This document shows positions 1 to 6,466 of a stretch of 37,433 bases of DNA, one piece after another. Under the pieces are notes generated by a model, which ran no database searches, had not been told where the DNA came from, and saw only the letters and a list, made by a program, of their open reading frames with translations. This stretch comes from a virus (lineage: Duplodnaviria; Heunggongvirae; Uroviricota; Caudoviricetes). A program made the position numbers and the translations under genes. The stretch lies in the IMG/VR virus record IMGVR_UViG_2563366989_000001. One strand, written 5' to 3'. Within the stretch, counting starts at the first letter, position 1. Each line of letters starts with the position of its first letter.

Positions 1-657
1 TTATGAACTATAATAAGTCCTAATCTTTACAGATGAAAGCATAATCTTCCAAGCTTGATCGCTACCCAACCACTCATCGTTGGTTGGTTCATTATCACCA
101 GATACTACATAAGTATCTGGCATATCAAAGTCTATATTGCAAAGGTCTTCTCCTTTGCGCTCCTTAAAAATAAGAAGATCTATTTTTGTTGTTGGGAATT
201 TTTTATCCAAAACACTTCTCAGTTTATACACAGCATCTCGTTCTGCATTCAATCTAACGAGTAAAACACGTTCCGACTCATTGATTTTCTCTATAAATCT
301 TTTTCTTCTCGCCTTTATTTTTTTCATCATATTAAACAAGCAGACTTCAATACCTTGTTTTTCATAGTCATCAATAAGAATATCGTGAATACTTCGAAAT
401 CCAGTCGCTGTATCTGTGATATCAATACAATTTTTAAATCTGCCATTAATTTTTATATTTTCAGGCAAGAAAAGGTGGTCGCACCCCTTATTAATTATTT
501 TTGTAACTTGAGGTAGTTTTTGAGAGGCAAACCAATCAAATGGTCCACTAAATGTCCTCAACCCAAATCGCTTTAACCTTCCTGCTGGTTGACATTTTTT
601 ACCAAGGCTTGCTATAAAATCATACTCTCCACAAGGAAGAAAAAGGCCTTTATTCAT
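1..657 (-). CDS. Hypothetical cargo protein with GPFDW motif, possibly DUF1796-like (recalled family); function unknown
   Basis: ORF 1..693; ATG at 657 has AGGA 7 nt upstream, alternative ATG at 693; stop at 1-3; AT-rich composition unlike the phage core. Confidence 0.5.
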   Translation of the reverse strand: MNKGLFLPCGEYDFIASLGKKCQPAGRLKRFGLRTFSGPFDWFASQKLPQVTKIINKGCDHLFLPENIKINGRFKNCIDITDTATGFRSIHDILIDDYEKQGIEVCLFNMMKKIKARRKRFIEKINESERVLLVRLNAERDAVYKLRSVLDKKFPTTKIDLLIFKERKGEDLCNIDFDMPDTYVVSGDNEPTNDEWLGSDQAWKIMLSSVKIRTYYSS

Positions 658-774
658 ATGATTTTCCTTACATTTTATGACGACAAAAATCATAACATTG
701 CCTTATTAATCAGTCAAACAGTTAACAAAAGCAAACAAACAAGTAAGCACATTGTTGATAATTTGTTTATTTTT

Positions 775-1389
775 ATGTTTTTGTTATCTATACCATTTTT
801 TTCATTTGCTTCTGATACAAACAAAACGCCACCATATCGCATGAGGGAGTCGATGTTTGAGTTATTAAAGGAGCAAAGGGATATTGTTATGCTTGGCGAT
901 AGCATAACCGCGCGAGGAGAGTGGAATGAGCTTCTTCCTAGTTTATCTGTAGCAAATAGGGGCATTGGGGGAGATGAAGTTAAATTTATGAAAAGAAGGA
1001 TTGATTCTATATTTTTATTAAAGCCCAAATATGTATTCATTATGGGCGGAACAAATGATTTCAGAAGAAAAAGAAGTGTTGATGATGTGGTTCGTGACTA
1101 TAAGCATATAATAAAAAAACTACACAAACACAGAATTAATGTATTCATTCAGTCCACCCTTTACGTGTCAAGAGAAAGCAGGTTAAATGACAACATAAAA
1201 ATATTAAAATTAAATAATGCAATAAATAACTATTGCTCTGTATCTAATTATTGTCGTTTCGTAGATCTTAACGTGCACATGGCAAAAGATAGAAAAATAC
1301 TAGCTAAGTATAGCGATGATGGAGTCCATCTAAATGGTAATGGGTATTTAATGTGGGCGTCAATCATATACCCTTTAATTAAAAAATAA
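775..1389 (+). CDS. SGNH/GDSL-family hydrolase (esterase/acyl-modifying enzyme), probably secreted
   Basis: GDS block (MLGDSITA), GGTND block and DGVHLN block in correct order; hydrophobic N-terminus MFLLSIPFFSFA; start uncertain (ATG 775 or ATG 658 in the same frame; the listed 589 start is TTG). Confidence 0.55.
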   Translation: MFLLSIPFFSFASDTNKTPPYRMRESMFELLKEQRDIVMLGDSITARGEWNELLPSLSVANRGIGGDEVKFMKRRIDSIFLLKPKYVFIMGGTNDFRRKRSVDDVVRDYKHIIKKLHKHRINVFIQSTLYVSRESRLNDNIKILKLNNAINNYCSVSNYCRFVDLNVHMAKDRKILAKYSDDGVHLNGNGYLMWASIIYPLIKK

Positions 1390-1396
1390 GAATAGT

Positions 1397-1427
1397 AAAA
1401 AACCATCTCATTATGAGGTGGTTTTTT
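1397..1427. terminator. Bidirectional intrinsic terminator between convergent cargo gene and tailspike gene
   Basis: Hairpin ccatctca/tgaggtgg (one G-U pair) flanked by an A-run upstream and a T-run downstream. Confidence 0.65.
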
Positions 1428-1508: not shown

Positions 1509-3908
1509 TTATTTTAGTATCCATCCGGTATTTCCTGTTCCTGTTTTTTTTTGATACCAATCACCATTATAATCAATGTACATTGACCCCTGAGGTGCGG
1601 TCACAACACCCTCAGGTGAACCGGAGCCTCTATAAATTCCAAAGAGAGTTGTACCTCTTACTTTCTCGTATGCAAACAACAAACCATCTGAAGCCCTTCT
1701 GATACGCAACGGTTCGTGCTCTGAGTCCGATGCAAATGTAGTGGTGCCGTTTGAATCTGTTTCCCTGGAAAAACTTCCATCTGTTCTTGTTCCTTCAATG
1801 ATCGAATTTGGGTAGTTTGGATCATCAGATGAATGTAACCTAATATAGGAACTATTTGATGCTGATACCCCCCTCCCCCTTAAAATCAATCCCTTAAATG
1901 ATGACGTAAATAGTGCCTGGATTGAGCCATAAACAGTGTTATCACTACCGTTTTGCTGATCGTATATTCTTAGTCTTGAGCTATTATCATACATAATAGC
2001 GTCGAAGTACTCACCAAGACGTTCGCTAAATGCAACAATATTAAAAGCATTGCGCCATCTAAATGATATATTTCGCCCGCTTTCTCCGGCATCTACACCT
2101 GCATTACTTGAAGCATTGGTTATGCCAGAATTAAGGTTCTGCTCATCGTTGTTACCAGTCGCTGGTCGTATAGAGTAAATTGTCTTTTTCTCAAGAGAAT
2201 AGCTACTTCCCCATCCATAATCTGTATCAGGACTCCAGTCTCCAGAATTTGCATCCTTGGTTGTTTCCACCCAATAAGAGCCATTTGATGGAGGAACACC
2301 AATTATTCCAGAAGTCTCAATAGATGATGCAGCCCATCTTCTTCCACGCCAGTTTACAATATTAGCTCCTGCCCTCCATGTTTCTATGCAGCTTATAATT
2401 ATTTCTTCGCCACGAATAGTTAAACCTTCCGGCTCGAATCTGGCTGGATTCCCAAGAGTTGGATGGTTAAGCAACCCATCGCGCCCATATTGCGACCTTG
2501 CATCATCGATATCTAATTTTCTTAGTAAATTACCTGTTAAATCATATGTAAAGATATGATGCTTTCCAAAAGCATTAGTGCCTCCCTTAAGTATATGTAT
2601 ATATCTTCCATCAGACGCAATACCTTGTACAGAGTAAGCGCCTTCAGAAGGTGAGTCGCTCATTTCCCAAACAAACATGGGGTTTGCTAATGTTTTATCT
2701 TCAAGTTTATCAATTGATATTTTATCGTATATAAATACAGTTCGTTTAGCGGCATCACTCTTTGGTGTATTAACCATTATTAAAAGACGACCGTCAGAAG
2801 AAATGGCAATTCCTGCACGATTGTAATCTTGAAATGGGTGACCGCTACCAGTAATCCCCCATACATTATAACTTTTTACGTCAGACTGAGTTGTTCCTGC
2901 CCCTCGCCAAGTTATTTTACTAAACCCTTTGCCTGCAGACTCCCCATCTTCACCTGAATTGGTTACACTTGATGTATATAAATATACTTGACCATTCTCC
3001 ACCATGGCAGAAAGATCAAATCCGTGCCCAAGGTTTAATTCTGGAGAATACGCAACATGGTTTACTACCCTTCCATCATCATAAAGATTAAACTCAACAA
3101 TACGAACTCTTTCTTTATCCGACCAGGTTGGCCCAACAGGCCGTTGTGTGACAAATAGTTTTTCAATGCCATTAACACGGCAATATGCGATCCCCTGTAA
3201 CGCATTTCTGGCATTAGGATAAATTTCTGTGTTTGTTTCTCCCTGAAAACCAAAAAAAGGTTCCATCATTTTTCTCTGCGCAAGTTTGTCAGTTTCAAGT
3301 AGACGAGAAACGGAAATAAGAGAGCCATTATCTGCAACAATCCTCCCAATACCTCGAGCAGAAGATACATCAACTTCGAGAGTATTTACTGCAAAATCGC
3401 CATCAGGAACAAACATTCTATAGCCTGCGTTAGAGAATGCCTCAGTAGCGTCAGTTATTCCATCACTGATAGCCCCCCAACCGCGAACATCTTTGTCATC
3501 ACGCCATCGTGCAATCTGCAATTCGGGATATTTTTTAGCACCATCCGGGTCTTCTAACTGCTGCCGTAGCTGATCCGGGTCATACTTCAGCACATTAGGG
3601 AAATAGAACTGCTGAGTGCCATATGCATCATATACAGCCATAGAATGGCCTTGAACAGTTACGAATTTGGCAATCTGCCCGTTATATACCGGATATCCAG
3701 CAGCGTTAATGATGATTGGCTGCGAAACAGGAACATGAGAGCCGTCTTCGTTCTCTACATAAACCTGAATCTGGTTTTCTGGACTTACCGGGTCAGTGTC
3801 AATTTTTCCGATATAAATTTTGCCGTTGGCTACTGCTTTAAAAGAACGCGCCATAGTGAAGAGTTGCGAAGGCATACTCACTACAACATTGGCTGTAATG
3901 TCTGTCAT
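1509..3908 (-). CDS. Tailspike protein: P22 gp9-like N-terminal particle-binding domain fused to a divergent receptor-binding/enzymatic domain
   Basis: First ~110 aa ([11 protein letters not shown]...[12 protein letters not shown]...[13 protein letters not shown]) match the P22 tailspike head-binding domain as recalled; the remainder does not resemble the P22 endorhamnosidase. Confidence 0.85.
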
Positions 3909-4072: not shown

Positions 4073-6466
4073 CTATTCTGACAACGAATCAGACTTAGCC
4101 CCCTGCGTCAGAGCGTTAATTGCCTTTTGTGCCTGCTGCATTGCTTTCTCAAAGGCTGTTGATCCGCGTGGGGTGTTTGCCATTCTGAGCATTGCATTTC
4201 TGAATGGTTCGCTCTCATAGGCGCGAGTAAGAAGTCCGTAGCTTACTGCTGCGCCAGTTGTCGCCGGGTTCATTGCCGTCCCATACCCGATAATGAACGG
4301 GATGGTTTGCTGCCCTGTGGGTGTTGTTACTGCCGCTTTTGCTGCCTGCTGAGTGGACTGAAGGTAATTTTTCAATCCTTTCAGATAAGCAGCATCCTGC
4401 CCCTTAAATGTGATGCCAGTCTGGTTTTGCAGGATGTTAAGCTGCCGAAGGAACTGGTCAGGGGATCCGCCAGATTTCTCCATCGCCTTTCCAATGATGC
4501 CATTGCGCATTTGCGCCCTGCCAACACGACCAACTGAGTTATACAGCGTCTTAATTTCCGATTTGTTCTTGCTGAATAGCATGTTGTTGACAATTTCCGG
4601 TGTCAGGTCGCCTTTCATGAGAACATTCTTCAGCCTGGTATTCTTTAGTTTCGCCGCTTCGTCAGCGTAGACGGCATTGGCCTGCTGATATTTACGGAGA
4701 GTATCGTTGCCAAGATTATGACCAATGGCACCATTGATATCGTCGGTCATCGCCTTGTAAACGCGCTGAATGGCAGCATCGGAACGGTTTGGTAACACTG
4801 GTCGCTCACCCTTCACGTCCATTCTGAACTGACTGCGCAGGTCGCTTAATTGCTTCAAATCCAGATTTACCGGACCATCAGGGCCAGCATTGCGAACAAG
4901 CTCATCATGATATGACTGAAGTTTTGAAATTGTCTCGTTATCAGCAACCTTACCAAGCTTCTTCAGATTAGATATCTCAGTATCAATCTGCTGAATTGCT
5001 CGCGCAGGCTGGATATTGACTCCCGCCATTGCATTCTGAACCTGCTCAAGACGGTTCCCTGCAGCACGACGAATTCCTGATGTTTTCGCTTTAAGGCTGT
5101 CAATAACAACAGCTGGATCATACTCACCGAATTTATCAGCAAATCTCTGCACCAACTGGCTTCTCGCTTCCTGTTGCGTTGCTCTCATTCCGCTTGTGCC
5201 AGCCAGGGGGATATTTTCTGCTGTCGTTTGCGCCATTTTTCCGACGCGGGAAGTAGGCTGTAACAGGTCTGTGGTGTGCAGAGGCACTCCTTCACGCTCT
5301 GCAAATCTGATAGCTTGCTGCGCTTCTGGCGCGATAGCACCACGAACGCCACGATAAGCAGCACCTAATCCACGTCCGGCAGCGTTAATAGCACCGCCAG
5401 CAAGTACACCAACGCCTAAATCGGTGGCGAGTGCTTCCGCATCATCTTTCGCACTATTTGCAGCAAGTGATCCAACTGCGTTTTCTGCTAGAAGGCGAGT
5501 TGCCCCCTGAGCAATTCGACCAGCAAGTGTTGGTGCCTGTGTTGCCGCTCTCTCAATGCCAGCAGGAGTGAGGTAAGGCAATGCTTCAGCAAATACCCTT
5601 CCCTCTGTCGTTTGTGGAGTCAGCGCGCCTTGCTTAAGTCCAAAGTCTTGCTCTAATCCCTGCGTTGTTACTCGTGGTGCTGGTTGATATGTACCATCGC
5701 CAATACCGAGTTTACCGCCAGCCCAAGCCGCCGCGCTTGTTACAGCATCAGTGAGTTCAGCAGGTATGTTCGCTACGTTGATTCCTGCCTGTAGTAAGCC
5801 GCGCCCGGTTTCAGCAAGTCCATTACCAAGGTCATACATTATTCCGCCTTGCTGCTGAACAGGTTTCGGTGCGACAGAACTTACGGGTTGAGGTGGCTGC
5901 TGACTGGCTGCCTGCTGCTCAATCTGAGCAAATGGATTATTTGGGTCTGACTGCACGCCTGATGCCGATACTTGTTCGGATGACTGTGCTTCCAGTTGTG
6001 CAAACGGGTTGTTAGGGTCTTGCTGAGGATGTACCTTTGCAGAGGTGGCGCGCTGTTCGACTGTTGAGTCTGTCACCGGGTCACCCGCCCATTGAGCAAA
6101 GCGATCATCAACGTAACCGCGGCCTTCAGGTCCTGGCGTATATTCGCCACGCTTTGCCTTCATAACGTTGCCGGGACCGTCGTGATAAGCCTGAAGAGCG
6201 TCACGCCAGTTACCAAACTGCTGGTACATCTTTGCCAGATAGCGCGCGCCAGCGTCAGCCTGATATTCGGGGTTTTGCATTTGCTCATCGGTATAACCCA
6301 TATCACGCCATGTCCCAGGCATGACCTGAGTCAACCCTACAGCCCCGGCGGAGCTTACTGCGGCAGGGTTGTAAGAAGACTCCTTGGCACCCAGTGCAGT
6401 CATCAACCCTTCTGGCACACCGTAACGTGCGCCAGCCTGCTCTAACAAATCACGGTAATTAGCCAT
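4073..6466 (-). CDS. Ejection (injection) protein in the gp16 position, with an N-terminal SLT-type lytic transglycosylase domain
   Basis: 797 aa; N-terminal GVPEGLMTALGAKESSYNPAAVSSAGAVGLTQVMPGTW transglycosylase motif; last of three ejection genes before the tailspike. Confidence 0.75.
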   Translation of the reverse strand: MANYRDLLEQAGARYGVPEGLMTALGAKESSYNPAAVSSAGAVGLTQVMPGTWRDMGYTDEQMQNPEYQADAGARYLAKMYQQFGNWRDALQAYHDGPGNVMKAKRGEYTPGPEGRGYVDDRFAQWAGDPVTDSTVEQRATSAKVHPQQDPNNPFAQLEAQSSEQVSASGVQSDPNNPFAQIEQQAASQQPPQPVSSVAPKPVQQQGGIMYDLGNGLAETGRGLLQAGINVANIPAELTDAVTSAAAWAGGKLGIGDGTYQPAPRVTTQGLEQDFGLKQGALTPQTTEGRVFAEALPYLTPAGIERAATQAPTLAGRIAQGATRLLAENAVGSLAANSAKDDAEALATDLGVGVLAGGAINAAGRGLGAAYRGVRGAIAPEAQQAIRFAEREGVPLHTTDLLQPTSRVGKMAQTTAENIPLAGTSGMRATQQEARSQLVQRFADKFGEYDPAVVIDSLKAKTSGIRRAAGNRLEQVQNAMAGVNIQPARAIQQIDTEISNLKKLGKVADNETISKLQSYHDELVRNAGPDGPVNLDLKQLSDLRSQFRMDVKGERPVLPNRSDAAIQRVYKAMTDDINGAIGHNLGNDTLRKYQQANAVYADEAAKLKNTRLKNVLMKGDLTPEIVNNMLFSKNKSEIKTLYNSVGRVGRAQMRNGIIGKAMEKSGGSPDQFLRQLNILQNQTGITFKGQDAAYLKGLKNYLQSTQQAAKAAVTTPTGQQTIPFIIGYGTAMNPATTGAAVSYGLLTRAYESEPFRNAMLRMANTPRGSTAFEKAMQQAQKAINALTQGAKSDSLSE

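Follow-up and report, generated by a model that had tools for sequence, protein, structure and literature searches.

P22 gp9, Sf6 gp14 and the HK620 tailspike join a head-binding domain to a β-helix endoglycosidase that acts on O-antigen. The spike of the K1-specific P22-like prophage CUS-3 is capsule-specific and propeller-based, with a six-bladed GH58 sialidase propeller and an S74 chaperone. A five-bladed propeller is found in the receptor-binding proteins (RBPs) of Gram-positive phages such as phi11 (Gp45, PDB 5EFV), 80alpha (6V8I) and P68 (tail fibre, 6IAB), which bind the wall teichoic acid of Staphylococcus and carry an N-terminal coiled-coil stem for a siphovirus or picovirus baseplate. 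Here we describe the tailspike gene in a stretch of 37,433 nucleotides from a virus of the Caudoviricetes (IMG/VR record IMGVR_UViG_2563366989_000001; the whole stretch is called the window), whose product carries the P22-type head-binding domain in front of a body that is predicted to have the five-bladed fold. Exchange of tailspike bodies is well known; the unusual part is a Gram-positive teichoic-acid RBP fold on an enterobacterial P22-like spike. A survey of host genomes links this body to a capsule locus of the K24 type, and the likely explanation of the whole is a P22-like adaptor with a portable propeller module that has the K24 capsule as its receptor, engaged via a central pocket. A teichoic-acid RBP fold would thus be paired with a capsule whose chemistry is that of a teichoic acid, and the choice of module appears to be set by receptor chemistry and not by host phylum. 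A literature search of incomplete coverage found no paper on a TagC/P68-type fold in an enterobacterial tailspike or on its link to K24.

The tailspike gene and its P22-type adaptor

The gene is a single intact open reading frame (ORF) at 1509..3908 of the window, encoding 799 residues plus a stop codon according to the ORF list and its translation. The first-pass annotation had proposed a gene here without giving its strand, which is the minus strand. It lies at the end of the P22-like late operon, after the ejection-protein genes, as in Lederbergvirus records and in P22, Sf6 and HK620, and its product is the tailspike of a P22-like (Lederbergvirus) prophage of E. coli. At the nucleotide level the ORF shares 99.9% identity with the tailspike annotated in Escherichia phage vB_EcoP-683R2 and 97.5% with that of Gally, an inducible P22-like prophage of adherent-invasive E. 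coli LF82. The likeness to HK620, Sf6, CUS-3 and ~900 other E. coli prophages is limited to the first 340-450 nucleotides of the gene. Databases already contain the sequence, in Gally, 683R2 and an NCBI cluster of 262 members, but assign it no function. The Gally and vB_EcoP-683R2 entries carry no functional or receptor annotation, RefSeq names the protein 'phage head-binding domain-containing protein', and PHROG 16355, which covers it at full length, is annotated as function unknown. NCBIfam holds no family for the tailspike, for the GDSL esterase and DUF1796 proteins encoded nearby, or for the capsule-locus propeller protein described below. Two papers on Gally and LF82 name no tailspike receptor. 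In macrophages, the tail spike gene of Gally and the Mnt genes beside it are reported to be induced 6-40-fold, with virion production blocked (PMC9928086); a capsule-binding or capsule-cleaving spike expressed by the lysogen could remodel its own capsule.

The protein is divided into the following parts, given in window coordinates:

3570..3908, minus strand: P22-type head-binding (tail-hub docking) domain, residues 1-113 (Pfam PF09008)
3510..3569, minus strand: helical linker between adaptor and body, residues 114-133 (AlphaFold2 helices 111-118, 123-126 and 128-137; predicted local distance difference test, pLDDT, 54-56)
3294..3509, minus strand: small α/β neck domain, first part of the swapped module, residues 134-205 (AlphaFold2 pLDDT 77-94)
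2319..3293, minus strand: five-bladed β-propeller by predicted fold, TagC/P68-RBP-like 'platform', residues 206-530 (putative pocket Q238, H295, Q428, E492, E494)
1674..2318, minus strand: β-rich post-propeller domains, equivalent to a 'tower' or stalk, residues 531-745 (AlphaFold2 strands within 547-736)
1512..1673, minus strand: short, conserved C-terminal segment with no S74 chaperone, residues 746-799 (pLDDT below 50 in the monomer model)

Residues 1-113 matched the Pfam Head_binding profile PF09008 over positions 1-113 of its 113 (E = 1.2e-66). A sequence search of PDB chains returned Sf6 gp14 (E = 3e-64), P22 gp9 constructs (E ~1e-50) and related chains, all within residues 1-118; in structure-based alignments this domain is ~61-74% identical to the P22 constructs and 85-90% to Sf6. 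When residues 119-799 were compared with all PDB chains, no stretch matched any P22, Sf6 or HK620 chain, and a fold search found these tailspikes through the N-terminal domain only. The first-pass annotation had recognized the P22 gp9 head-binding domain in the first ~110 residues and postulated a modular swap to a body unlike the P22 endorhamnosidase. Both views hold, since an end-to-end alignment of residues 120-799 with a P22, Sf6 or HK620 catalytic domain was absent by sequence as well as by fold search. Its term 'receptor-binding/depolymerase' domain stands in part: the module is swapped, but instead of a β-helix 'depolymerase' a TagC/P68-RBP-like propeller is predicted, for which depolymerase activity is only putative. 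In the E. coli strain EC19, a prophage encodes residues 134-799 at 96% amino acid identity behind an unrelated 192-residue adaptor. Because the identity starts at residue 134, sequence comparison sets the boundary of the exchangeable body at about this position.

Predicted fold of the body

We modelled the protein as a monomer with AlphaFold2, using an alignment with 25 relatives (identity to the window protein 28-57% across the full-length alignment). The mean pLDDT was 81.8 and exceeded 90 for most of residues 140-600; only residues 1-23, a loop at residues 606-612 and residues 746-799 were unreliable, the loop lying in a low-confidence stretch around residues 601-620 (block means 46-64). 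In the predicted structure, a five-bladed propeller superposable on the phi11 Gp45/P68 platform is followed by distal β domains, whose strands (residues 547-736) have a pLDDT of mostly 82-95 that falls to 62-77 over residues 721-740. The phi11, 80alpha and P68 RBPs have the same propeller type at an identity of ~10-15% to the body. The best overall match to the whole body was the gene 12 neck appendage of Bacillus phage GA-1 (Q9FZW3; Foldseek E = 1.5e-44, 585 aligned columns), which is 26% identical over residues 209-659 (E = 4e-53). GA-1 gp12 is likewise a podovirus host-adhesion appendage, but it differs in its N-terminal attachment region and is made as a precursor. According to the model, the body is therefore a TagC/P68-RBP-like five-bladed propeller with C-terminal β domains, homologous to the wall-teichoic-acid-binding RBPs of Gram-positive phages. 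A right-handed parallel β-helix catalytic domain of the type of gp9 residues ~125-540 was found neither by sequence, as matches to P22-type chains end by residue 118, nor in the predicted fold.

Other parts of the body have relatives of their own. Residues 113-175 matched the tailspike chain 9vvr_A in the PDB sequence search, PHROG 8280 tailspikes match the window protein up to residue 206, and the RBP of PGN829.1 has a similar C-terminal ending (…SGSGNTGWVAK). Many relatives combine other N-terminal adaptors with a C-terminal S74 chaperone (PF13884), a domain present in 14 of 26 relatives and absent from the window protein, and relatives carry PF12219 (End_tail_spike) in the region of residues 531-745. 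These End_tail_spike and S74 domains, together with the 5′ end shared with CUS-3 (first 449 nucleotides, 87% identity), raised the idea of an endosialidase-like body. It was rejected because the CUS-3 match stops at nucleotide 449 and the structural similarity to the endosialidases 1v0e, 3gvk and 4hiz is marginal (Foldseek E ~1e-6, template modelling score 0.15-0.2). Furthermore, Pfam gave no hits in the window protein to the End_beta_propel and End_beta_barrel domains of the six-bladed sialidase propeller. Taken together, the protein belongs to the P22 adaptor family and, by predicted structure and motifs, to the TagC/P68-RBP propeller family, and not to the β-helix endoglycosidase or GH58 families. 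In function it resembles the phi11, P68 and GA-1 RBPs, in architecture the CUS-3 endosialidase spike.

A conserved putative pocket

Each blade opens with an x-G-hydrophobic motif (Q238-G, H295-G, A365-G, Q428-G, E494-G). Residues Q238, H295, Q428, E492 and E494 were kept in an alignment with the PGN829.1 RBP, the P0018-type tailspike described below, GA-1 gp12 and two host-encoded capsule-locus propellers. Their counterparts in phi11 Gp45, within the same motifs, are Q165, H209, Q330, E385 and E387, and the phi11 paper places Q165 and Q330 in the proposed ligand cavity. A phmmer search of 1.84 billion representatives yielded only 174 propeller relatives, almost all of 600-1400 residues and differing in where along the chain the propeller lies. 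Across 148 of these (median identity 34%), H295, Q428, E492 and E494 were conserved at 93-99% (Q428 93%, the His and the two Glu 98-99%). The Q/H/Q/E/E pocket can therefore be regarded, from sequence conservation, as the putative functional signature of the family; that its residues cluster in three dimensions is suggested by the blade topology together with the phi11 paper.

Co-occurrence with K24-type capsule loci

We subsequently surveyed 5426 complete E. coli genomes, using nucleotides 1509-3400 of the window as query for the body. It was present in 44 genomes, including LF82, NRG 857C and the probiotic strain A0 34/86. Region 2, the serotype-specific part of the group 2 kps locus, encodes in LF82 a TagD-like cytidylyltransferase, a GT29-like transferase, a TagF-like cytidine diphosphate (CDP)-glycerol glycerophosphotransferase, a tetratricopeptide repeat protein and a 327-residue 'phage baseplate protein', which is a propeller protein. 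The K24 polymer is reportedly built of 3-deoxy-d-manno-oct-2-ulosonic acid (Kdo) and glycerol phosphate, in agreement with this gene content. Region 2 of A0 34/86, an O83:K24:H31 strain, is 99.7% identical to that of LF82, and the LF82-type locus was named K24-type because of this serotype and the gene content. K24 contains α-pyranosidic Kdo; a capsule-typing paper on E. coli (2026) lists a K24 reference strain and gives Lenter, Jann and Jann (1990) as reference for the structure. Phage proteins and the propeller gene are unmentioned in that paper, as is a propeller or baseplate-like gene in a 2024 paper on transition transferases. As a separate observation on LF82, its RefSeq genome annotates the O83 O-antigen polymerase gene wzy as frameshifted (L013:31197-32431); if this is real, the strain would make little polymerised O-antigen.

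Only 61 of the 5426 genomes contain the LF82-type region 2 at full length; the 60 of them that were listed include 40 of the 44 tailspike hosts (odds ratio ~2500, Fisher p = 6e-81, uncorrected for clonality). The four remaining hosts can be explained. Three are clonal WCHEC strains with the prophage at its usual place and a ribitol-phosphate-type region 2 as in E. coli B/BL21, the last 540 nucleotides of which are 98.9% identical to the K24-type locus; this recombination joint lies inside the propeller gene. In the fourth, WW2, the entire gsp-kps region has been lost through a deletion bounded by IS1. The four K24-negative hosts thus reflect secondary events, a locus switch or a deletion, and the co-occurrence is almost exclusive. 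Either the switch of region 2 in the WCHEC strains or the loss of kps in WW2 would alter the predicted phage receptor.

A control within one O serogroup separates capsule from O-antigen. Of the 35 genomes with the O83 O-antigen cluster, seven have the K24-type locus as well, and the tailspike is present in each of them; both are missing from the remaining 28. Therefore, the tailspike follows the capsule locus and not the O type. The first-pass annotation had stated that the specificity cannot be read from sequence alone; this stands for the protein itself, but the co-occurrence with a K24-type locus and with no O-antigen type makes it inferable from the host genomes.

The pairing extends to other members of the family. 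The PGN829.1-type body (46% amino acid identity to that of the window) occurs in two of the 5426 genomes, PK5 and EC19, both of which have the K24-type locus (p = 1e-4). A P0018-type tailspike, consisting of head-binding domain, propeller and S74 chaperone and 45% identical to the window tailspike, occurs in five genomes, exactly the five with another CDP-glycerol-based region 2 that encodes TagD-like, glycerophosphotransferase, KpsS/C-like and GT8 proteins.

For the window-type body, the pairing holds for both alleles of the K locus (99.7-100% and 96.2%) and for both of the tailspike. The body was met in five contexts: in P22-like prophages at argW with a GDSL esterase/DUF1796 module, in P22-like prophages at argW without the esterase module, in Gally at torS, at another integration site in CEA601S, and in a non-P22 prophage of EC19 inside kps, between region 2 and kpsS (NZ_CP182182.1, 865550-879440). 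The same body on several backbones and sites argues against simple clonal hitch-hiking. The EC19 prophage also encodes a holin, a GH19 endolysin, a Bro-N protein and a YafO-like toxin, and the PGN829.1-type propeller tailspike of this strain lies elsewhere in its genome.

A related propeller protein encoded in capsule loci

The 'phage baseplate protein' of LF82 is not restricted to this strain. Polyol-phosphate group 2 K loci encode such proteins of 319-327 residues with a PF21311 TagC/P68-RBP-like propeller, for instance in region 2 of LF82 (L005:25899-26882, minus strand) and in WCHEC4533, which has the locus type of E. coli B/BL21 (L006:33463-34422). The protein matches PF21311 with E = 4e-15 and residues 414-498 of the tailspike with a BLASTP E of 2e-8, has a signal-peptide-like N-terminus, and is homologous to the pocket region of the tailspike (QxIxxD…, EPEGL). 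Acinetobacter, Rahnella and Leclercia have relatives of this protein. There appears to be no description of what it does in capsule biology.

Proposed receptor of the tailspike

We propose the following mode of action. By homology to P22 and Sf6, the trimer would attach to the tail hub through residues 1-113. The three propellers would then engage the K24 group 2 capsule, a teichoic-acid-like polymer of α-Kdo and glycerol phosphate, which would be held in the central propeller pocket of Q238, H295, Q428, E492 and E494, as proposed for phi11 Gp45 with wall teichoic acid. Unlike the β-helix tailspikes of P22, Sf6 and HK620, the window protein would thus have a capsule as receptor, as does the spike of CUS-3, from which it differs in having five blades and no S74 chaperone. 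Capsule-specific binding by the tailspike is probable; the association in host genomes argues for K24 or a teichoic-acid-type polymer as the ligand.

Several points weigh against this proposal. Clonality confounds the association: the prophage sits at an identical argW position in many hosts, which seem to form a single lineage. The basis of the K24 assignment is a single serotyped strain together with the gene content. PF21311 scored 16.5 bits on the window protein (residues 293-462, E = 0.007), below the gathering cut-off of 23.7, and gave weak hits in five of 26 relatives; membership in the TagC/P68-RBP family therefore rests on structure and motifs. Finally, the structural model is that of a monomer in which the last 54 residues are unreliable.

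If correct, the proposal provides a concrete receptor prediction, the K24 capsule, for Gally, which is active in LF82, a model strain associated with Crohn's disease, and also for a prophage present in many isolates of human clinical, animal or wastewater origin. The tailspike could then serve as a reagent for K24 typing or decapsulation. The proposal also draws attention to a gene for a secreted TagC-like protein, so far unstudied, in the polyol-phosphate capsule loci of E. coli, among them that of the laboratory strain B/BL21.

Binding or cleavage of the capsule

Whether the propeller also cleaves the K24 polymer, at the phosphodiester or the Kdo linkage, is a separate question. Characterised capsule-specific E. 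coli podophage tailspikes (K1, K5, K30) are enzymes, and most five-bladed propellers are enzymes as well. The near-invariance of one His and two Glu across 148 relatives of presumably different specificities is suggestive, being more typical of catalysis than of specificity. Because a podophage must cross the capsule, because the His and both Glu are conserved and because the K loci encode a secreted homologue, we give cleavage a nearly even chance, if slightly below. Two points speak against it. No known hydrolase or other catalytic family in Pfam or NCBIfam matches the tailspike by sequence. In addition, phi11/P68-type RBPs are described as binders only, and the phi11 paper uses neither the word 'enzymatic' nor the word 'hydrolase'.

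The tailspike could instead be a pure adhesin. Its binding to the K24-type capsule or to a teichoic-acid-like moiety would be reversible, in line with the proposal for phi11 Gp45, and passage through the capsule would be left to other factors, for example a thin or phase-variable capsule. Descriptions of the closest solved homologues, the phi11, 80alpha and P68 RBPs, present them as binding proteins, and in phi11 the conserved pocket has been modelled as a sugar-binding cavity; the lack of a hydrolase family signature also fits this view. The enzymatic nature of the K1, K5 and K30 spikes and the extent of conservation (98-99% for the His and both Glu, 93% for Q428) point the other way, as does, by analogy only, the secreted K-locus homologue, which recalls periplasmic polymer-degrading enzymes of other exopolysaccharide operons. 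We regard pure adhesion as a tentative alternative of somewhat less than even probability.

A more far-reaching idea, which we consider unlikely, is that the TagC-like five-bladed propeller represents an unrecognised class of polyol-phosphate polymer hydrolases ('teichoicases'). If this were true, one catalytic module would act on wall teichoic acid in Gram-positive phages and on teichoic-acid-like group 2 capsules, K24 and its relatives, in E. coli phages. Bacteria would use it to trim or recycle their own polymer (TagC of B. subtilis; the secreted K-locus propeller, including that of strain B/BL21). TagC would thereby gain a function, and phi11/P68-type 'binding' RBPs would have to be reclassified as enzymes.

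Alternative explanations of the association

The association with the K locus could also reflect hitch-hiking, with prophage and capsule locus co-inherited in a few clones and a true receptor such as an outer-membrane protein or the lipopolysaccharide (LPS) core. In many hosts the prophage indeed occupies one and the same argW site and is nearly identical in sequence, and the Fisher test ignores phylogeny. But the pairing spans both K-locus and both tailspike alleles and at least four phage backbones or integration contexts, one of them with a different adaptor, and it recurs in two further members of the family, which have K loci of their own (2/2 and 5/5). Hitch-hiking is therefore improbable. 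Still less credible is an O-antigen-specific tailspike directed against O83 and/or O102-type LPS: P22-like tailspikes (P22, Sf6, HK620) are classically O-antigen endoglycosidases, the O83 strains LF82, NRG 857C and A0 34/86 are among the hosts, and related RBPs occur in O11, O83, O86 and O102 strains (Pas et al.), but the O83 cluster is present in only 7 of the 44 hosts, 28 of the 35 O83 genomes lack the tailspike, its presence within O83 tracks the K24-like locus (7/7 versus 0/28), for which reason O83 specificity was rejected, the predicted fold is not the O-antigen-type β-helix, and Pas et al. consider that such RBPs probably target a receptor common across serogroups.

Neighbouring genes

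The tailspike gene is flanked by the following features:

1..693, minus strand: DUF1796 putative papain-like (cysteine) peptidase gene, part of the same accessory module as the esterase gene (Pfam PF08795, E = 8e-16)
853..1389, plus strand: GDSL/SGNH esterase gene, convergent with the tailspike gene (Pfam Lipase_GDSL_2, E = 4.6e-21)
1397..1427, no strand assigned: hairpin between the convergent tailspike and esterase genes with A6 and T6 flanks (sequence; RNA fold of 1385-1515, z = -2.6)
4073..6466, minus strand: gene for an ejection protein of 797 residues, the largest ejection protein, with an N-terminal SLT lytic transglycosylase domain (Pfam SLT, E = 2.6e-25)

The hairpin at 1397-1427 is likely a bidirectional terminator; a scan for consensus promoters and terminators did not list it and found fewer sites than in shuffled sequences. 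The genes immediately before the tailspike gene are gp7-, gp20- and gp16-like; besides the SLT ejection protein, they encode P22 gp7-like and injectosome-translocase proteins. Genes for P22 gp7- and gp20-type ejection proteins lie further upstream of the SLT ejection-protein gene, and some host prophages have a 665-residue version of the SLT ejection protein that is annotated without the SLT domain.

A 537-nucleotide GDSL esterase gene is annotated by RefSeq at the same position in host prophages. The esterase/DUF1796 module is present in 683R2-type prophages; Gally lacks both genes and has a 288-nucleotide hypothetical gene instead. By its position, which is usual for such genes in P22-like phages, the esterase gene is a candidate for receptor modification (lysogenic conversion). 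In CUS-3, neuO adjoins the tailspike gene. The P0018-type tailspike gene is adjoined by one for a hexapeptide-repeat acetyltransferase, which recalls neuO beside the CUS-3 endosialidase (L009:4367-5077, L011:44171-48997). A receptor-modifying gene beside the tailspike gene thus recurs, with neuO in CUS-3, the acetyltransferase gene in the P0018 type and, as a candidate, the GDSL esterase gene in the window.

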